Assembly: GCA_029858565.1 (NCBI GenBank)
Contig: JAOUEV010000059.1
Coordinates: forward strand, 1 to 19,516
Direction of reading: 5' to 3'
Length of the DNA: 19,516 nt
Origin: Nitrospirota bacterium
GTDB lineage: Bacteria; Nitrospirota; UBA9217
Below the pieces are notes generated by a model. The model was given only the letters and a program-made list of their open reading frames with translations. It was not told where the DNA came from and made no database searches. Each line of letters starts with the position of its first letter. Within the stretch, counting starts at the first letter, position 1. Shown in pieces: positions 5,709 to 12,023 of the stretch. The translations under genes were made by a program, and so were the position numbers.

Positions 5709-5812
5709 ATACAAGTGACGAGCGACCAGTGACCAGTTACAGCAGCGTAAAGCCTGCAGGAGAGAGGAGAGATCCTCGTCTCTCGTCTCTCGTCTCTCAT
5801 CTCTTATCTCTA
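5709..5812. repeat. Inverted heptamer arrays (NGACGAG / CTCGTCT), gene-less version
   Basis: tgacgag cgaccag tgaccag (5716-5736) facing ctcgtct x3, ctcatct, cttatct (5775-5809), directly abutting the stop of the upstream gene. Confidence 0.85.
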
Positions 5813-6268
5813 GTAACTAATCAGTGCCTTGATCAGCTTCTCGTTCATCATATGCACGTTCCGGCTCGCCATGCGCGCCATGGTCTTCATGATCTTGTAC
5901 ATCATCACCGGCTCGTCCTTTTCCAGCGCCTTGAACTCGTCCACCGTTATCCGGTACAGCTCGGCGTCGTCGACCGCCGTGGTGTTCGTGCTGTGGTTCT
6001 TCCGGTCCTCGATCACCGACAGTTCGCCGAAGAAATGCAGCTCCGTCAACAGGGCAAGCGTCTGTTTCCACCCGTCGGGCGTAGGCTTGGAGATCTCGAC
6101 CTTCCCCTTCTTGATCAGGAAGATCCCCTTGGTGGGCTCGCCGTCGCGGAACACCTGCGCGCCCTTGGCATGCTGCTCCCGCGTCATCCTTTTGGCGATG
6201 CTTTCCAGCTCCCGGTCATCGAGATCGCACAGCAGTTTCTGGCCCTTGAGATCAGCACCTTTGATCAT
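5810..6268 (-). CDS. Stand-alone cyclic-nucleotide-binding (Crp-like) domain protein without HTH
   Basis: KGAQVFRDGE..IFLIKKGKVEI..FFGELSVI motifs; ends after the C-helix; AAGGAG lies 7 nt before the ATG at 6268. Confidence 0.85.
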   Translation of the reverse strand: MIKGADLKGQKLLCDLDDRELESIAKRMTREQHAKGAQVFRDGEPTKGIFLIKKGKVEISKPTPDGWKQTLALLTELHFFGELSVIEDRKNHSTNTTAVDDAELYRITVDEFKALEKDEPVMMYKIMKTMARMASRNVHMMNEKLIKALISY

Positions 6269-6313
6269 AAGCACGCTCCTTTATTTACCAGGAAATCCGA
6301 TCAGAAGCTTATC

Positions 6314-6401
6314 TCACACGAAGCCACGAAGCCGCAGAGAAAAGCAATGGTTCTCACTAAAGGTCTTCTTCGTGTCTTCGTGTCTTCGTGCCTTCGTGCG
6401 A
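6314..6401. repeat. Inverted octamer arrays (CACGAAGN / CTTCGTGY)
   Basis: TCACACGAAG CCACGAAG CCGCAGAG (6314-6339) facing CTTCGTGT x2, CTTCGTGC x2, GA (6368-6401). Confidence 0.85.
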
Positions 6402-6441: not shown

Positions 6442-9183
6442 TCAAGCCTTCTCGATCCGCACCGTCCCCACCTTCAGCTCCGGGATCCGGCAGATCGGGT
6501 CCACAGCTGTGCTGCTCGTCAGGATGTTGGCCGCCGCCTCGCGGTAGTGGAAGGGGATGAACACCACGCCGCGGTCCGGCTTGGTCGTCACCTGCGCGGC
6601 AAGGGTGATGGAGCCGCGGCGCGACGTGACCTTCACCATTGCTCCGTTCTCCACGCCGAGCTCCCGCGCGTCCTCGCGGCTGATCTCGATGTACGGCGTG
6701 CCCGCGACCTTTTCGATGGCCTTCACGCGCCGGGTCATGCTGCCGGTGTGGTACTGGAACAGCATCCTGCCCGTGGTCAGCACAAAAGGGAACTCGCTGT
6801 CCGGCTGCTCCACCGAAGGGCGGAACGTCACGTTCGTGAACCGGGCCTTGCCGCGGGGGAATCCGCCCTTGAACAGGAACTGCGTGCCCGGGTGGTCCGG
6901 CGTGGGGCAGGGCCACTGGAGCCCGCCTTCCTCTTCGATCCGCGAATAGGAGATGCCCGCCATGGCCGGCCAGGCCTTTCCCAACTCCTGAAAAACTTCC
7001 TCGGTGTGATGGTACGGCATCTCGTACCCCAGCCGCCTCGATATCTCCATAATGATGTGCGAGTCCTTCATGGCCTGGCCGGGAGCGTTCACCACGCGGC
7101 GCACCAGCTGCACGCGGCGCTCGGTATTCGTGAACGTGCCGACCTTCTCGGCAAAAGAAGTGGCGGGCAGCACCACGTGCGCCAACTCCGCGGTTTCGGT
7201 CATGAAAAGGTCCTGCACGATCAGCAATTCCAGCGCCTTGAGCGCCTTACCTGTATGCACGGTGTCGGGATCAGTGAGCGCAGGATTCTCGCCCATGATG
7301 TACAGCGCCTTCAACTTCCCGGCAAGCGCGGCATCAAGCATCTCATTGGCCATCAGGCCTTCGCGCGCTGAGAGCTTGACACCCCAGAGCTCTTCGAATC
7401 GCTCCCGCACGGCTGGAACCGTCACCCGCTGATAGCCCGGATAGACGTTTGGCAGACATCCGGAATCGCACGAACCCTGAACATTGTTCTGGCCGCGTAG
7501 CGGATTCACACCGGCACTCTCTTTGCCGAGGTTCCCGGTCATCAGCGCCAGATTCGCTAGCGCAAAGACATTATCTGTCCCGTGCGAATGCTGGGTGATC
7601 CCCATGGTGTAGTATATACCCGCCCGCTTGCCTGTTCCATAGATGCGCGCCGCCTCGATGATCTTCTCCTTGGGCACGCCGGTGATCTTTTCCACGGACT
7701 CCAGCGTAATACCACGGATGGCTGTCTGGAACTCATTCGTGAATCCCTCGGTCCGTTCCTCGATGAACGCCCGGTCGACGAGATTCTCTGCCAGGAGGAC
7801 ATGCATCATGCCGTTCAGCAGGGCCACATCGGTTCCGGGCCGGTGCTGAAGCCAGAGACTGGCGAACCTGACGAGCGGCACCCTGCGGGGATCGACGATG
7901 ATCAGTTTTGCTCCCCGCCGCACGGCCTTTATCATCCGATGTGCTACAATCGGGTGGTTTTCCTTGGTGTTTGAACCGATGACAAACAGCACATCATTGT
8001 TCTCGATTTCCGCCATCGAGTTCGTCATGGCTCCCGAACCGAACACAGTGGCCAGACCGGCCACCGTAGCGCTGTGTCAGTAGCGCGCGCAGTGATCGAT
8101 GTTGTTCGTACCGATCGCCGCGCGCATCATCTTCTGGAACAGATAGTTTTCCTCGTTCGTGCACCGGGCCGAGGCGAAACCGCCGATTGCGTCGGGACCG
8201 TGCATATCCCGGATGGACCGCAGACGCTCGCCGAGATAGGCGAAGGTCTCTTCCCAGGATGCCGCCGTCAGCTTACCGTTCTTTCTGATCAGCGGGGCTT
8301 TCAGCCGGTCCGGGCTGTTGATGAACGAAAACCCGAAGCGGCCTTTCACACACAGCCATCCCTCATTGATCGTTTCCGGCCGCGACCCTGCCCTGATCAC
8401 CTCGTTCTTGACCACGTCGTAGGTGATGTTGCATCCGCAGCCGCAGTAGGGGCAGACGGTCTCCACCGTGCGTACGTCGCGGGTCCGGCCCTTGCACAGC
8501 GACGGTTTGGATACCAGCGCGCCTGTGGGACAGACCGAAACGCACTGGCCGCAGAACTCGCAGTCCAGGTCCCGCTCAAAAGGCGGGCAGATCTTGGTGC
8601 CAAAGCCTTTGTAGGCGTAATCAATGGCGCCGACCCCCTGCACCTCGTCGCAGACCTTCACGCACCGGCCGCAGAGAATGCACTTCTCCATGTCCCGCTC
8701 GATGAACGGGTTGCCGTCGCGTTTGGGGTAAATACGCCGCTCGCCGTGGAACACCGGGGTGCGGATCTGGTACTTGTACGCGAGCTCCTGGAGCTCGCAG
8801 TCCCCGGCCCGTTCGCAGACCATGCAGTCGTAGGGATGGTCTGACAGGATCAGGTCCAGGATATCCTTGCGCAGCCCTTCGATATAGGGCGACGCGGTGG
8901 TCACTTCCATCCCGTTCTCCGCCAAGGCAGTGCACGATGTCACCGGCTGGCCGTTGATCTCGACGATGCAAACGCGGCAGGCGCCGGTCACCGACAGCTT
9001 CGGATGGTGGCACAGCACCGGGATGTGGATGCCCAGCTGCTGCGCGGCGGCGAGGACGGTGGTTCCGGGCAGAACTTCGATCGGCCGACCGTCGATGGTA
9101 AGGGTCACCGGTGAAAGCGACGAGAGACGAGAGAGAGGTGACGAGGGAGAACCATCATGCGTATGTTTATCGTTTGATGACAT
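6442..9183 (-). CDS. fdhA: Selenocysteine-containing Mo/W formate dehydrogenase alpha subunit with N-terminal Fe-S domains (913 aa from ATG 9183)
   Basis: ORFs 8077-9183 and 6442-8064 are in frame; junction reads [29 protein letters not shown]; [2Fe-2S], HC-[4Fe-4S], 2x[4Fe-4S], CPYCGCGC and RGQNNVQG motifs. Confidence 0.95.
8045..8079 (-). promoter_or_regulatory. Sec UGA codon and bacterial SECIS hairpin
   Basis: TGA (8079-8077) followed by ACGGTGGCC-GGTCT-GGCCACTGT (8067-8045); position and GGUCU apex resemble the E. coli fdhF SECIS. Confidence 0.9.
9110..9150. repeat. Heptamer arm (NGACGAG) on one side of the four-helix-bundle gene, inside the predicted fdhA 5' end
   Basis: cgacgag agacgag agagagg tgacgag (9118-9145). 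Confidence 0.8.
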
Positions 9184-9196
9184 AAACGTCAGCTTG

Positions 9197-9559
9197 TCAG
9201 CCTTTACCTGCTTTCTTTTTGATCGTGCCCTGCAGCCCTGCGGTCATCAGGGATAGCTCATTAAGCTCTTTCAGGAGAACCGACGCCTGCTTCAAGTATT
9301 TCAGCTTGTCAGCAATGATCAATTGCGTTTCCAGTTCCGCGATCGAACCCTGCGCTGTGGACAGGAACTGGATGAACTCTTTCGAGCTTTTTCGTGCAGC
9401 ACCTTCAGCTATATTGCTCGGAATAGTAACGGCTGCTCTTCTCATCTGCTGCGTCAGTCCGTAAACTTCGTGCCGCGGAAAAGTATCCGTGACCTTATAG
9501 ATCTCGACAACCAGTTCTATCGAGCGCTTCCAGACATCAAGATTATGATGCCATTTCAT
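9197..9559 (-). CDS. Four helix bundle protein (23S rRNA IVP / bAvd-like, TIGR02436-type)
   Basis: LDVWKRS..IYKVTDTFPRHEVYGLTQQMRRAAVTIPSNIAEG..EFIQFL..AQGS..ELETQL family signature; visibly more AT-rich than neighbours. Confidence 0.93.
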   Translation of the reverse strand: MKWHHNLDVWKRSIELVVEIYKVTDTFPRHEVYGLTQQMRRAAVTIPSNIAEGAARKSSKEFIQFLSTAQGSIAELETQLIIADKLKYLKQASVLLKELNELSLMTAGLQGTIKKKAGKG

Positions 9560-9589
9560 GTTTAGTCGACCGCTACCTGCCTCTTTTTA

Positions 9590-9645
9590 CTTATCGCTCG
9601 TCGCTTGTCTCTCATCACTCGTCTCTTATTCACCGTCTCTCGTCA
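9590..9645. repeat. Complementary heptamer arm (CTCGTCN, about 8 units) on the other side of the four-helix-bundle gene
   Basis: cttatcg ctcgtcg cttgtct ctcatca ctcgtct cttattca ccgtct ctcgtca; the last unit contains the stop codon of the NuoF-like gene. Confidence 0.85.
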
Positions 9646-11406
9646 CTGTTTCTTTATCGCCTTAAATTTACACGCCCGGTAACAGGCCCCGCATTTGACG
9701 CACTTCGCCGCGTCGATCGCATGGACGACCTTCGGAGCGCCGGTGATGGCGTTGGCGGGGCAGGCGCGGCGGCAGAGGCCGCAGGCCTTGCACTTGTCCG
9801 CGATGACCGAGAAGGTTATGAGCGCGGTGCAGACGCCTGCCGGGCACTTCTTCTCGCGGATATGCGCCAGGTACTCGTCCTTGAAGTGGTTGAAGCTCGT
9901 GAGAAAGGGATTCGGCGCGGTCCTGCCCAGTCCGCAGAGAGACGTGGACGCCATCACGCCGGACAGCCGCTCGAGCGTCTTCAGGTCCTCTTCGGTCCCG
10001 GTCCCCCCGGTGATCTTCGTAAGCAGTTCCAGCATCCGCTTGGTCCCGATCCGGCAAGGCACACACTTGCCGCAGGACTCGCGCTGCAGGAACTCGATGT
10101 AGAACTTGGCGACCGACACGATGCAGTCATCCTCGTCAAAGACCACCATGCCGCCGGAGCCCACGATACTGCCGACACGCGCCAGGTTCTCGTAGTCCAG
10201 CCCCAGGTCCAGCATGGACGTCGGTATGATGCCGCCCGACGGCCCGCCCACCTGGATCGCCTTGAGTGCCTTGTCTCCTTCGATCCCGCCGCCGATGCCG
10301 TACACAATGTCCCGGAACGGCATGCCCATGGGGATCTCCACGAGCCCGTTGTTCCGCACCTTGCCCGAGAGCGTGAAGATCTTGGTGCCTTTGCTGTGTT
10401 CCGTACCGATGGCAGCGAACCAGGCGGATCCCATGCCGATGATGAGCGGAATGTTCGAAAAGGTCTCGGCGTTATTGATGACCGTGGGCTTGCCCCAGAG
10501 GCCGCGATAGGCCGGGAACGGCGGACGGACCCGCGGCATGGCGCGCCTGCCCTCGATGGACTCCATGAGCGCGGTCTCTTCTCCGCATATGAATGCTTCG
10601 GTGCCGAAGCTGAACTCGATGTCGAAGTCAAATCCCGAGCCAAAGAGATCCCTGCCGATGAAACCCCGTTCGCGCGCCTGTACGAGCGCGTTCCTGAGCC
10701 GCTCCACGGACAGGTGGTAGCGCTCACGGATATACAGGTATCCCTTCGACGCGCCCACGGCATACCCCCCGATGAGGAGGCCTTCAATGATCGCCTGAGG
10801 ATTTCCCTCGGCCAGCGGACGGTTCACTTCACCGATATTGCACACAACGTACTTCGTATCGCTCGGTACGCTCCGGCAGGCTTTCCACTTCTCACCGGTG
10901 CGGAACCCGCTCCCGCCCCTGCCGCGCAAGCCTGACCGGATCACCTCATCGACAACACCGTCGGGCGTCATGGTGGTCATGGCCTTCTTCGCTGCCCGAT
11001 AGCCCCGCATGGCAAGGTAATCGTCGATATTGTCCGGATCGATCTCGCCGCAGGGGCCGAGCACGACCTTGCGCTGCTTGGCATTGAAGGACGCGTACTC
11101 GTCCTTGACCGTCCATTCAGCGATCGGCGCGCCGCCGAGCACGTGCTCCTCCACGATCCGCTCCACCATGATAGGCGTGACCGACTGGTAGGTCGTGCGA
11201 CTGTCGTTGGCGATCACATCGACCAGCACGTCCTTGGAGCAGAACCCCCGGCAGCCGACCTTGGACGGCGAACACCGCTTCCCGATCCGGGCCTCGATGC
11301 CCTTTTCGAAAATATAGTGCCGGAACATGCGGAGCACTTCCTCCCCGCCGGCCGCGTTGCCCGAGGTGCCGAGACAGACCTTTATTTCGATGGTGTCGTT
11401 TGCCAT
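9643..11406 (-). CDS. nuoF: NuoF/HydB/HylB-like flavin and Fe-S subunit of the formate dehydrogenase complex
   Basis: N-terminal thioredoxin-like domain, SGLRGRGG, CGEETAL, GGPSGG, ESCGKCVPC..SLCGLG, H..CPAGVC and two C-terminal [4Fe-4S] motifs; start MANDTIE at 11406, just after the nuoE-like stop. Confidence 0.9.
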   Translation of the reverse strand: MANDTIEIKVCLGTSGNAAGGEEVLRMFRHYIFEKGIEARIGKRCSPSKVGCRGFCSKDVLVDVIANDSRTTYQSVTPIMVERIVEEHVLGGAPIAEWTVKDEYASFNAKQRKVVLGPCGEIDPDNIDDYLAMRGYRAAKKAMTTMTPDGVVDEVIRSGLRGRGGSGFRTGEKWKACRSVPSDTKYVVCNIGEVNRPLAEGNPQAIIEGLLIGGYAVGASKGYLYIRERYHLSVERLRNALVQARERGFIGRDLFGSGFDFDIEFSFGTEAFICGEETALMESIEGRRAMPRVRPPFPAYRGLWGKPTVINNAETFSNIPLIIGMGSAWFAAIGTEHSKGTKIFTLSGKVRNNGLVEIPMGMPFRDIVYGIGGGIEGDKALKAIQVGGPSGGIIPTSMLDLGLDYENLARVGSIVGSGGMVVFDEDDCIVSVAKFYIEFLQRESCGKCVPCRIGTKRMLELLTKITGGTGTEEDLKTLERLSGVMASTSLCGLGRTAPNPFLTSFNHFKDEYLAHIREKKCPAGVCTALITFSVIADKCKACGLCRRACPANAITGAPKVVHAIDAAKCVKCGACYRACKFKAIKKQ

Positions 11407-11411
11407 GAATC

Positions 11412-11891
11412 TTAGATATACCCCAGGAACTCCTCGCGCTCGTACCCCGTGATCAGCTTGGTCACCTTGACCGGGTCCATGCCGCTGTGCACCTGCTTGT
11501 TCATGATCACCACCGGCGCGATGTTGCAGGCGCCGATGCAGGTCGCCTTTTCGAGCGTGAACTTGAGGTCCGGGGTGGTATCCTCGTCGCCCGTGAGGTT
11601 CAGGGTCTCCCGGGCCTTGTCCAGGATCTTGTCCGCGCCCTTGATGTGGCAGGCAGCGCCGCAGCAGACCGTGAGCGTGTTCTTGCCAACGGGCTTGGTG
11701 CGGAACTTGGGATAGAACGTGATCACGCCGAAGAACCGGCTCGCCGGAATGTCCAGGCGCTCGGCGAACCAGTCCACGTTCTCCGGAGCGATATGGCCGA
11801 AGGTCTCCTGGATGCGCTGGAGCAGCATGATCAGATTGCCGCCCGTGCGCTTGTGTTCGTTCAGTATCTTGGTGAGTACTTTGTCTTCCAT
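11412..11891 (-). CDS. nuoE: NuoE/HydC/HylC-like [2Fe-2S] subunit
   Basis: LQRIQETFG, GVITFY, C-x4-C (CCGAAC) and C-x3-C (CIGAC..APV) motifs. Confidence 0.92.
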   Translation of the reverse strand: MEDKVLTKILNEHKRTGGNLIMLLQRIQETFGHIAPENVDWFAERLDIPASRFFGVITFYPKFRTKPVGKNTLTVCCGAACHIKGADKILDKARETLNLTGDEDTTPDLKFTLEKATCIGACNIAPVVIMNKQVHSGMDPVKVTKLITGYEREEFLGYI

Positions 11892-11908
11892 AGTAATCCC
11901 CGAAACAC

Positions 11909-11943
11909 AGCGAGCCGCCGGAATGTTCCGCCGGCGGCTCGCT
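11909..11943. terminator. Perfect 13-bp GC-rich hairpin between acsB and the nuoE-like gene (partial terminator or stabiliser)
   Basis: AGCGAGCCGCCGG (11909-11921) / CCGGCGGCTCGCT (11931-11943); only a weak GTGTTT tail on the minus strand. Confidence 0.6.
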
Positions 11944-12023
11944 CAAAAGCCTGACAACCGTGGTCACCGGCGAAGGAACGCTTTTGTAAATATGCGTCTG
12001 CGCCGGCCTTCCACCGGTAAGAT

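Follow-up and report, generated by a model that had tools for sequence, protein, structure and literature searches.

The window, i.e., the whole stretch of DNA that was analysed (19,516 nt of contig JAOUEV010000059.1, from a Nitrospirota bacterium), carries a Wood-Ljungdahl (carbon fixation) operon in which a nuoF-like gene and an fdhA gene with a probable selenocysteine codon are separated by a low-GC insert of 534 nt (9109-9642). The features of this region are as follows, with the evidence in brackets:

9643..11967, minus strand: NuoF-like gene, 774 aa (Pfam Complex1_51K, NADH_4Fe-4S, SLBB and Fer4)
9588..9642, minus strand: upstream (5') arm, a degenerate GACGAGA-type array of about four 14-nt units on the sense strand (inverted-repeat search, Tandem Repeats Finder, fold, duplex)
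9560..9587, minus strand: leader, from the 5' arm to the ATG of the cargo gene (sequence read)
9197..9559, minus strand: cargo gene, 120 aa, PF05635 / TIGR02436 (profile matches)
9152..9196, minus strand: spacer after the cargo stop codon, containing a minor inverted repeat of its own (9156-9170 / 9182-9196)
9109..9151, minus strand: downstream (3') arm, reverse-complementary to the upstream one (plus strand: 2.3 units of GACGAGA plus variants)
6442..9108, minus strand: fdhA-like gene, molybdopterin formate dehydrogenase (Pfam matches on both halves)
6316..6398, minus strand: hairpin without a gene, built of CACGAAG-type arrays with an 8-nt unit, close behind the stop codon of fdhA (sequence read)
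5711..5811, minus strand: gene-less GACGAGA-family array with partial complements just downstream (Tandem Repeats Finder, C7:5775-5811, 4.3 units)

The placement of the insert is exact: it extends from the stop codon of the nuoF-like gene (TGA, 9643-9645), which abuts it, to the start of fdhA, now a GTG (9106-9108), where relatives with an empty site have an ATG plus three further codons. The C-terminus of the NuoF-like protein is conserved at orthologous junctions, and the GC content of the insert is 0.45-0.51 (about 0.48) versus 0.58-0.72 in its flanks. The fdhA-like ORF is made of two halves in one frame around an in-frame TGA (8077-8079), which is, to judge from the motif read around it, a probable selenocysteine codon. 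The gene-less array at 5711..5811 is located between a cNMP-binding ORF and fhs, while the hairpin at 6316..6398 represents PDDEXK_3-type arms without a cargo gene, its unit being also found in the flanks of PDDEXK_3 genes (see below). Between positions 8900 and 9900, Rfam returned no match at E<=1. Since no terminator was found in the same interval and the only promoter-like match at the cargo gene is weak and overlaps its start codon, this gene is probably expressed by read-through transcription. Finally, Pfam scans of 19 window ORFs returned neither a transposase nor an integrase, and it is for these ORFs that the preliminary description, which considered the window devoid of both, is borne out.

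According to its profile matches, the cargo protein is a member of the PF05635 / TIGR02436 family of four-helix-bundle proteins, a family discovered in intervening sequences of ribosomal RNA (PF05635, 23S_rRNA_IVP: E 8.3e-38, 129.3 bits for a cut-off of 33.8, positions 2-104 of 106; TIGR02436: 125.1 bits for a cut-off of 24; NF008911: 143 bits for a cut-off of 137), and its neighbours are identified by Pfam, which agrees with the initial view of a 120-aa four-helix-bundle gene splitting a nuoF-like/fdhA pair. A four-helix-bundle fold and a pentameric assembly would go with this membership; the sequence relative in the PDB is 2GSC (XCC0516; E 7.1e-28), an entry listing five chains. The protein is 74% identical to the copy found at the same site in the MAG DeMMO3_8 (in which an in-frame stop codon is present), and 65% identical to the closest homologue among 241 million metagenome records; its identity to the remaining copies of its own genome is 20-46%. 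It is under purifying selection, with a dN/dS of 0.06-0.10 between orthologues (from the 5 of 12 pairs with unsaturated dS). Genes of the family occur in unrelated contexts (five sites in the window's genome, tRNA/tmRNA neighbourhoods, cas and restriction-modification loci), and many PF05635 cassettes are kept at the same site across genera.

The two arms around the cargo gene form a best inverted repeat of 37 nt with 78% complementarity (9115-9151 / 9591-9627), along with a second register (9116-9148 / 9615-9647). Tandem Repeats Finder recovers 2.3 perfect GACGAGA units in the 3' arm (9119-9134) and a 14-nt period repeated 2.9 times with 75% matches in the 5' arm (9607-9647); the complementary 7-mer arrays reported at first do exist, but they are shorter and more degenerate than a regular series of heptamers. 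When the flank is aligned with the reverse-complemented flank, the score is 39, a value that 2000 randomly drawn pairs of windows from this genome never reached. The arm duplex has an energy of -49.8 kcal/mol versus -35.3 +/- 4.2 for 1000 dinucleotide shuffles, three of which were as good (z = -3.4), meaning that the arms pair more stably than expected from their composition. Moreover, the arm stem closes the minimum-free-energy fold of the 571-nt region, even though this fold as a whole is marginal (z = -1.68; 4 of 100 shuffles as good). The pairing of the arms proposed at first is supported by duplex stability, but the pattern of mismatches does not support an action in mRNA: in the arms of 75 non-identical loci, there is no sense-strand G·U excess that would indicate selection at the RNA level (90 G·U in the sense RNA versus 107 in the antisense only), and the antisense duplex of the window arms is the more stable one (-55.4 versus -49.8 kcal/mol).

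The nuoF-like/fdhA-like junction was compared wherever it was readable, i.e., in 19 cases. A PF05635 gene is present in two of these, in the window (534 nt) and in G011 (473 nt), where the arm unit is different and the protein shares 50% identity. The 17 others, nearest relatives included, are without such a gene: the spacer is only 5-11 nt long at nine junctions, among which those of G002 (same genus) and G012, at 83-84% FdhA identity, and in G001, G009 and G016 this junction is occupied by gene-less hairpins or arrays. Because the junction is just 11 nt long in two close relatives, window positions 9109-9642 are an insertion, and because the empty sites of G002 and G012, the closest ones, are free of any array, the arms arrived at this locus together with the gene. 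In run X2, one contig joins position 9067 to position 9650, while run X5 yields a filled relative about 92% identical and with a shorter arm. The presence of the cassette is patchy on, and incongruent with, the flanking-gene tree, ((G000 filled,(G001,G002 empty)100)100,(G012 empty, DeMMO3_8 filled)81)99, a pattern that needs at least two losses or at least two gains; over the 19 genomes, at least five separate occupancies of this single junction are seen. We found no recombination tract adjoining the cassette, no evident target-site duplication between filled and empty sites, and no recent movement among the metagenome homologues and own-genome paralogues. Hence, the empty alleles that the preliminary description proposed to look for do occur, gene and arms behave as the single inserted unit that it had envisaged, and a vertical descent congruent with fdhA is contradicted by the tree.

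This armed design is not particular to the locus. All five PF05635 copies in the window's genome are located in low-GC islands between complementary arrays of differing units. With a threshold set at the 99th percentile of flank complementarity in 2000 random window pairs, arms were detected at 16 of 28 loci from relatives, 27 of 35 loci across phyla (0 of 32 displaced controls) and 39 of 68 metagenome loci (0 of 36 displaced controls), these counts not being independent, as they include orthologues and some near-duplicates. The enrichment of arrays beside homologues, which had been anticipated, is therefore real: inverted short-repeat arms are a hallmark of PF05635 genes across phyla, with a period that is almost always 7 (135 of 142 periodic flanks) and a unit whose sequence changes from locus to locus. 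The arms co-vary within loci (mean complementarity of 36.3 within loci, n=19, versus 28.5 between orthologues, n=40), and, for loci in different contexts, the fraction of similar downstream arms over rising bins of protein identity is 0.01, 0.02, 0.14, 0.24 and 0.75, the top bins being small and dominated by one subfamily. Cargo genes are co-oriented with the host operon and located in its spacers (neighbour orientations at 86 loci: ++ 60, -+ 15, +- 8, -- 3), as first suggested for expressed operons, with a median of 37 nt between arm end and start codon. Whichever strand is read, the 5' arm is rich in G (58 loci versus 12), a bias that is inherent in the inverted repeat and independent of gene direction.

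Two further aspects were absent from the preliminary description. First, the arm unit of the window belongs to a dispersed family, whose members are mostly gene-less hairpins or arrays: the genome contains 25 dispersed arrays of the GACGAGA family and 53 inverted array pairs, with gaps of 2-110 nt in 37 and of 265-533 nt in about 10, the 37 gene-less hairpins sharing units with cargo-bearing pairs. Second, a blind genome scan recovered the same armed architecture, with units of 8-10 nt, around PDDEXK_3 genes (5 of 7 in the window's genome; 23 of 33 overall versus 0 of 30 controls), whose nuclease-fold proteins form another small cargo family. Each cargo type has its own arm period: that of PF05635 is 7 nt, whereas PDDEXK_3 arms have 8-10 nt and none of their 13 periodic flanks has a period of 7. 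This specificity and the rise of arm similarity with protein identity indicate, albeit indirectly, that the protein may recognise the repeats, as the preliminary description had inferred. The scan also returned two RAYT-like loci (C19 and C82, named by their motifs).

Considering the generality of the design, the dispersed unit and the gene-less hairpins, we therefore regard it as rather probable that gene and arms constitute a foldback-type gene cassette, in which a PF05635 gene is enclosed within two inverted arrays of 7-nt repeats that would pair up as a hairpin in the transcript. By analogy with the stem-bounded intervening sequences (IVS) of 23S rRNA, the hairpin would loop the insert out; the operon may tolerate the insert because the stop codon of nuoF and the start codon of fdhA would thereby be brought together. 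The IVS known from Leptospira, Coxiella and others consist of a stem cut by RNase III and an S23p ORF, and they share several traits with the cassette: the cargo family (PF05635, "S23p"), a similar size (428-444 nt versus 534 nt), complementary termini in a long stem (28 bp in Coxiella), a GC content below that of the host with a sporadic distribution, and no promoter of their own (PMC4990558). The cassette indeed has complementary termini forming a stem around an ORF, but it lies between two protein-coding genes, outside any rRNA gene, and its arms are built from arrays of a 7-nt repeat that is also found dispersed over the genome. An IVS-like excision by RNase III might be expected from this resemblance, and the genome encodes the enzyme (C14:187704-188090). 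No RNA sequencing run was found to cover the stretch.

In REP/RAYT systems, a single RAYT gene stands between inverted REP copies. The cassette is comparable in having a short dispersed element, in inverted orientation, on both sides of one gene; this element is mostly gene-less and often occurs as hairpin pairs in intergenic spacers of the same genome. On this model, the cargo protein may act on its own kind of repeat. In contrast, its cargo is a four-helix bundle or a PD-(D/E)XK fold rather than an HUH/Y1 (IS200/IS605-like) transposase, its arms are tandem arrays whereas a REP is a single palindrome, and a single genome harbours several cargo genes with differing units. In Drosophila, foldback (FB) transposons have long inverted arms of short tandem repeats in variable number, with a loop that sometimes bears a gene; the likeness is one of architecture only: FB elements, which are eukaryotic, far exceed the cassette in size and are related to it neither in sequence nor in their proteins. 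A classical insertion sequence or MITE was rejected, as the arm unit differs among the five genome copies and between loci, with no target-site duplication evident and no transposase among the 19 scanned ORFs, and so was an integron gene cassette, given the arms on both sides of the gene, where such a cassette has one attC hairpin at the 3' end, and no integrase among these ORFs. No published description of such a cassette was found in the literature searched, and the recurrence of the same bracketed design in many bacterial phyla points to a kind of gene cassette for which we found no description. Its movement would be slow on the scale of genera.

A different and rather unlikely possibility is an element folding back at the DNA level: the arms would form single-stranded hairpins or cruciforms, cut and rejoined by a structure-specific enzyme acting in trans or by the cargo itself (as for the PD-(D/E)XK-fold proteins), with the RNA hairpin as a by-product and the gene-less hairpins as non-autonomous derivatives, like MITEs and REPINs. 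The symmetry of G·U and A·C mismatches and the equally good folding of both strands fit this reading, as do the G-rich 5' arm on either strand (58 loci versus 12), the 37 gene-less inverted pairs that have 2-110-nt loops and share units with cargo-bearing pairs, the nuclease fold of one cargo family, and the five or more occupancies of one junction in 19 genomes. Yet neither transposase, integrase nor HUH enzyme is found in or beside the cassettes examined, no catalytic motif is known from the PF05635 protein, the arms vary between copies, which transposon ends do not, and the filled-versus-empty comparison makes no target-site duplication evident. Moreover, the strong co-orientation with host transcription is not predicted, though selection could yield it.

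It is also conceivable, albeit unlikely, that the arms are no part of the unit, short-repeat hairpins arising and spreading alone in intergenic spacers (e.g., through polymerase slippage) and small genes being captured or surviving in their loops, much as intervening sequences do in the loops of rRNA helices. Gene-less heptamer arrays are abundant in the genome (193 of 462 robust arrays have a period of 7), and such arrays occupy the same junction in three relatives, as noted above. Over-represented intergenic heptamers are known from Xanthomonas (GGGAATC), Nostoc (GGGGA(C/T)T), Beggiatoaceae (TAACTGA) and cyanobacteria (STRR), with proposed roles in G-quadruplex formation or regulation (PMC4692102, PMC4679880). 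They resemble the cassette arrays in their period of 7, their 2-26 units and their position in spacers of co-oriented genes, and differ in length among close relatives; in Xanthomonas, 70-75 pairs are convergent (inverted), no link to a gene being noted (PMC4692102, PMC4679880). The terms PF05635, S23 and four-helix have no occurrence in the text of these two papers, whose supplementary tables may list a gene between the inverted pairs. Cassette arrays, in contrast, go with a cargo gene: no array is present at the empty sites of G002 and G012, the closest ones, the period is cargo-specific (7 versus 8-10 nt), and arm similarity grows with protein identity, within the limits of small top bins and one dominant subfamily.

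That the gene would be a common accessory gene of the formate dehydrogenase operon, passed on vertically, with repeats of incidental low complexity, is very improbable. The ORF is intact in the window, homologous copies sit at the same junction in DeMMO3_8 and in the relative from run X5, and family members are under purifying selection, but this reading is largely refuted because of the empty sites (17 of 19 junctions, nearest relatives included), to which are added the incongruence with the flanking-gene tree, the GC content (about 0.48 versus 0.6-0.7 in the flanks), the unrelated contexts of the family and the arm statistics, which speak against incidental repeats. Finally, the idea that the gene is what remains of a diversity-generating retroelement, the cargo being its Avd accessory protein (Avd binds nucleic acid and has a homologous fold, a four-helix bundle; PMC10053308), is scarcely credible and was rejected for this locus, since the weak Avd matches (bAvd, 24.7 bits; NF033474, 29.5 bits) fall under the respective cut-offs of 40 and 80 bits, no template/variable repeat pair (long direct repeat) was seen in 9000-9750, and no reverse transcriptase is adjacent, the two of the genome being located on other contigs (C62 and C69).

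The window carries a Wood-Ljungdahl cluster on its minus strand, which comprises, in cluster order:

First in the cluster, minus strand: pterin-binding methyltransferase gene, two CdhD-type corrinoid protein genes and acsB
9643..11967, minus strand: NuoF-like gene (774 aa)
9197..9559, minus strand: ORF of 120 aa matching PF05635 (129 bits) and TIGR02436 (125 bits)
TGA at 8077-8079, minus strand: joins the two in-frame halves of the FdhA-like gene
6316-6398: hairpin built of 8-nt CACGAAG-type arrays, enclosing no gene and immediately following the fdhA stop
5810..6274: cNMP-binding ORF, after the FdhA-like gene
5711-5811: gene-less GACGAGA-family array (4.3 units at 5775-5811, partial complements downstream), between the cNMP-binding ORF and fhs
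Last in the cluster, minus strand: formate-tetrahydrofolate ligase gene (fhs)

The TGA dividing the fdhA-like gene into two same-frame ORFs lies inside a conserved Cys-containing motif and probably represents a selenocysteine codon. Between the stop of the NuoF-like gene and the start of the FdhA-like gene, 534 nt (9109-9642, hereafter the cassette) have a GC content of 0.45–0.51 vs. 0.58–0.72 in the surroundings, and enclose the PF05635 ORF (the cargo). The “hypothetical” family PF05635 is very common, and its sole previously known context is, to our knowledge, the puzzling 23S rRNA intervening sequence. The closest solved relative of the cargo protein is XCC0516 (PDB 2GSC). The cargo is co-oriented with the operon and is probably transcribed in the same sense; no terminator-like site was found in its region, nor any Rfam match in 8900-9900, and a single weak promoter-like match overlaps the start codon.

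The two ends of the cassette (its arms) are reverse complements, the best register pairing 9115-9151 with 9591-9627 (37 nt, 78%), and alternative registers are present, as expected where arms consist of repeats. According to Tandem Repeats Finder, 9119-9134 holds 2.3 perfect GACGAGA units and 9607-9647 a 14-nt period repeated 2.9 times; the arrays are short and degenerate. Because GC-rich coding flanks dominate the energy, RNAduplex was uninformative on 150-nt flanks and was replaced by an arms-only duplex test and a local-alignment score. The duplex of the arms alone reaches −49.8 kcal/mol, vs. −35.3 ± 4.2 for 1000 dinucleotide shuffles (3/1000 equally good). When the sense RNA is folded, its minimum-free-energy structure closes with the arm stem. 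Moreover, the local alignment of one flank with the reverse-complemented opposite flank scores 39, and none of 2000 window pairs drawn at random from this genome scores as high. The armed gene noticed in the preliminary description is thus confirmed, and the arms can close the insert off.

Orthologous junctions were retrieved from 30 relatives; 20 junctions were read and, one being N-masked, 19 remained for comparison, the window included. A PF05635 gene is present among these 19 junctions only in the window and in one relative (G011), where the arm unit differs from that of the window and the protein is 50% identical. Spacers of 5–11 nt are found at nine of the 19, including those of G002 (same genus) and G012 (83–84% FdhA identity), in which the junction reads TGA, two bases, then ATG. 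In the window, that ATG and roughly three codons have been lost from fdhA, whose start is now GTG 9108. In three other relatives (G001, G009 and G016), the junction is occupied by gene-less hairpins or arrays; in another (L055, from G028), the 133-nt spacer holds a palindromic repeat element of another kind, not a short-period array. The window cassette is therefore an inserted unit, and close relatives provide empty alleles of the kind that the preliminary description had proposed to look for; its reading of gene plus arms as one unit is supported by this comparison and extends to many other loci.

When one genome of each species was scanned, the same cassette, with homologous arms and at the same junction, was recovered in the Nitrospirae MAG DeMMO3_8, where it is split across two contig ends and its protein is 74–75% identical to that of the window. 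Codon 35 of the PF05635 ORF in this copy (L067) is an in-frame stop, which may mean that the copy is a pseudogene, that the codon is recoded or that the sequence is in error. In the tree of the flanking proteins (NuoF-like and FdhA-like only, 793 aligned residues), ((G000,(G001,G002)100)100,(G012,DeMMO3_8)81)99, where G000 is the window's own genome, the two filled alleles are not sisters. Both nevertheless begin fdhA with GTG and agree over the codons that follow, derived states being shared across only about the first seven codons. A recombination tract was considered for this shared allele and rejected: over the 150 nt that end the nuoF-like gene, G000 and DeMMO3_8 are 68% identical vs. 80% for G000 and G002, so that identity beside the cassette tracks the flanking-protein tree and leaves no room for a long tract. 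The history of the junction requires at least two losses, or else two gains or transfers. Weak support for insertion also comes from DNA contigs of two sequencing runs: in X2, a contig of one relative connects 9067 directly to 9650, and in X5 a filled relative, about 92% identical, has fewer units in its upstream arm; no RNA run was listed as containing the stretch. Near-identical copies were not found elsewhere, either with one genome per species (≤75% identity, the best match being the orthologous site) or among metagenome contigs (≤65%). Finally, the empty site of G002 resembles one unit, which raised the idea that the arm unit was copied from the local target; this idea is weakened, as the unit is dispersed in the genome as a family of 25 arrays (GACGAGA with at most one mismatch), the longest mentioned having 19.6 units.

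PF05635 occurs in 22 of the 31 related genomes sampled (up to 12 matches per genome). In the window's genome, all five copies above the family cut-off lie within low-GC islands between complementary arrays, and the arm unit differs among all five. To extend the comparison, we considered loci from the 30 relatives, from other phyla (Omnitrophota, Acidobacteriota, Bacteroidota, Patescibacteria, Planctomycetota, Verrucomicrobiota and Desulfobacterota; 40 loci, 35 with both flanks, two records not labelled as MAGs) and from metagenomes (80 loci, 68 with both flanks). The 99th percentile of random window pairs is exceeded by 16/28 loci in the relatives (7/28 being above the maximum), 27/35 in the other phyla (vs. 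0/32 controls displaced by 700 nt) and 39/68 in the metagenomes (vs. 0/36 controls), although the sets include orthologues and some near-duplicates, so that these counts overstate the number of independent cases. The enrichment of arms beside homologues, a check suggested in the preliminary description, is thus observed. Periodicity is higher than in 95% of controls for 142 of 238 flanks, with a period of 7 in 135 of these 142. The cargo has the same orientation as both neighbours in 60/86 loci and is opposite to both in 3/86. Where orthologous cassettes have diverged, the two arms of a locus stay complementary to each other (mean of 36.3 within loci, vs. 28.5 between orthologues), and the cargo protein is conserved (dN/dS of 0.06–0.10 in 5/12 orthologue pairs with unsaturated dS). 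None of the seven loci tested falls inside an rRNA gene; three lie in other stable-RNA neighbourhoods, one locus lying between two tRNA genes (L026), one just upstream of a tRNA gene (L076) and one just downstream of a tmRNA gene (L078). One Planctomycetota contig (L100) is an exception to the rule, with very long arrays (17 and 12 units) that are mutually non-complementary.

The same design exists with another cargo. A blind scan of the whole window genome for inverted matches about 320–500 nt apart (63,753 window pairs, reduced to 22 clusters) recovered the window cassette, a second PF05635 locus and five PDDEXK_3 genes between inverted short-repeat arrays (Pfam E-values of 1e-38 to 1e-41). 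Armed PDDEXK_3 genes amount to 5/7 in this genome and to 23/33 loci when relatives are included (vs. 0/30 controls), and none of their 13 periodic flanks has a period of 7, the periods being 6 and 8–10. One of these genes (G000:C14:144469-144947, L187/L198), with perfect 23-nt inverted arms, sits at another NuoF-like/NuoG-like junction, and PDDEXK_3 matches adjoin the homologous NuoG-like gene in four relatives (G001, G010, G012 and G014), so that the second cargo type is found at junctions of a homologous kind. The blind scan further found two prepilin-type (N_methyl) ORFs and a tRNA-His gene between inverted heptamer arrays of the ATTGCGG and AGTGCGG families (G000:C109:8747-9303, C115:24384-24938, C14:127946-128742); hence, cargo is not limited to PF05635 and PDDEXK_3. 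It also returned two RAYT-like ORFs, named by motifs alone, between REP-like palindromes (G000:C19:20061-20324 and G000:C82:36841-37485), and a CRISPR array (G000:C32, ~9550-10360).

A Tandem Repeats Finder census of the window's genome yielded 462 robust short arrays, among which period 7 is the commonest (193). Array pairs within 1.5 kb are inverted in 53 cases and direct in 20, and the inverted ones show a bimodal gap distribution, with 37 at 2–110 nt (gene-less hairpins) and about 10 at 265–533 nt (cargo-bearing). The CACGAAG-type unit of the hairpin following fdhA also flanks PDDEXK_3 genes elsewhere in the genome. Single-linkage clustering of the repeat units merged everything, and this grouping was discarded.

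How such cassettes are tolerated within operons may be explained at the RNA level: the arms would fold back in the transcript, as in stem-bounded 23S rRNA intervening sequences, which RNase III cuts (PMC4990558). An RNase III gene is present in the window's genome. Such folding would place the stop of the upstream gene next to the start of the downstream one, and a tightly coupled junction could thereby survive the insertion. A serious rival is a DNA-level foldback element, of which the gene-less hairpins would be non-autonomous derivatives. It is favoured by three observations: G·U pairs on the sense strand are not in excess among arm mismatches (90 vs. 107), the antisense strand of the window arms folds at least as well as the sense strand, and G outnumbers C in the 5′ arm of 58 loci vs. 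12 (75 PF05635 loci), a richness that holds on both strands, as the arms are reverse complements, and is hence independent of gene direction. A role of the period-7 upstream arms as three-frame translation stops was rejected (1.40 stop trinucleotides per arm vs. 1.32 when shuffled; all frames closed in 10/75). Regarding the protein, the arm period is cargo-specific, 7 for PF05635 and never 7 among PDDEXK_3 periodic flanks, and arm similarity increases with protein identity, in small bins dominated by one subfamily. These sequence patterns indirectly suggest that the cargo protein may recognise its own repeats, a candidate pairing that is open to bench testing.

Among known systems, the window cassette resembles an rRNA intervening sequence in its stem and cargo but is devoid of the defining feature, as it is not in an rRNA gene; with REP/RAYT loci, it shares a gene lying between inverted copies of a dispersed repeat. 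By membership tests, it does not qualify as a diversity-generating retroelement, an insertion sequence or MITE, an integron cassette or a RAYT locus. Over-represented intergenic heptamer repeats have been described, including 70–75 inverted pairs in Xanthomonas campestris (PMC4692102, PMC4679880), the species that also supplied the crystallised PF05635 protein, and the text of these two papers does not mention the PF05635 family. Openly readable full texts yielded no account of PF05635 or PDDEXK_3 cassettes armed with repeats, nor any paper connecting either gene family with neighbouring repeat arrays.

Inverted 7-nt arms accompany the PF05635 gene almost wherever it is found, tight operon junctions are its landing sites, and its arm units are common to many gene-less hairpins, which joins three separate puzzles (rRNA intervening sequences, orphan four-helix-bundle/PDDEXK_3 genes and over-represented heptamer repeats) into one testable system. 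We tentatively propose, as a possibility that we consider rather unlikely, that bacteria harbour two foldback-element families, so far unrecognised, whose trans-acting factors are the PF05635 four-helix-bundle proteins and the PDDEXK_3 proteins, that the long-known and unexplained 7-nt and 8–10-nt intergenic arrays of many bacteria (Xanthomonas GGGAATC, Beggiatoaceae TAACTGA, cyanobacterial STRR) are their gene-less derivatives, and that ORF-bearing 23S rRNA intervening sequences are the special case of a cassette landed in an rRNA helix. For operon biology, the window offers an insert of about 0.5 kb amid a Wood-Ljungdahl operon. For annotation, downstream start codons are displaced (fdhA here) and contigs break at arrays: cassettes are often at contig ends or broken by them (L067/L104 in DeMMO3_8, G000:C94:215-511, L156), and since short-read assemblies seem to be interrupted by the arrays, the copies counted in MAGs are probably too few.

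A subfamily from Desulfobacterota (L080 from Desulfacinum hydrothermale DSM 13146, L081, L134, L137, L143, L146, L156 and related metagenome loci) has proteins 88–97% identical and conserved arms (GGTTYCTGGTT / AACCAGRAACC), and always lies upstream of a DNA-methylase-like gene, the 5′ end of which traverses the downstream array. In L156, the array exceeds 20 units and reaches the contig end, indicating that repeat number is hypervariable. High-identity pairs in different contexts, considered as evidence of transposition, mostly belong to it and, because the methylase-like gene is homologous throughout, are not clean evidence. Two unrelated PF05635 cassettes (G000:C93:8506-8799 in the window's genome and L093 in a Verrucomicrobia MAG) each immediately precede a gene for a DinB-like (Y-family) polymerase, which may be a coincidence. 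Finally, a 5′-truncated PF05635 copy of 70 aa, followed by a long downstream array with an 11-nt period, sits between a malic-enzyme-like and a fumarase/aspartase-like gene (G000:C47:36041-36226 and L036); in G012, the cassette at the orthologous site is intact and its units are similar.
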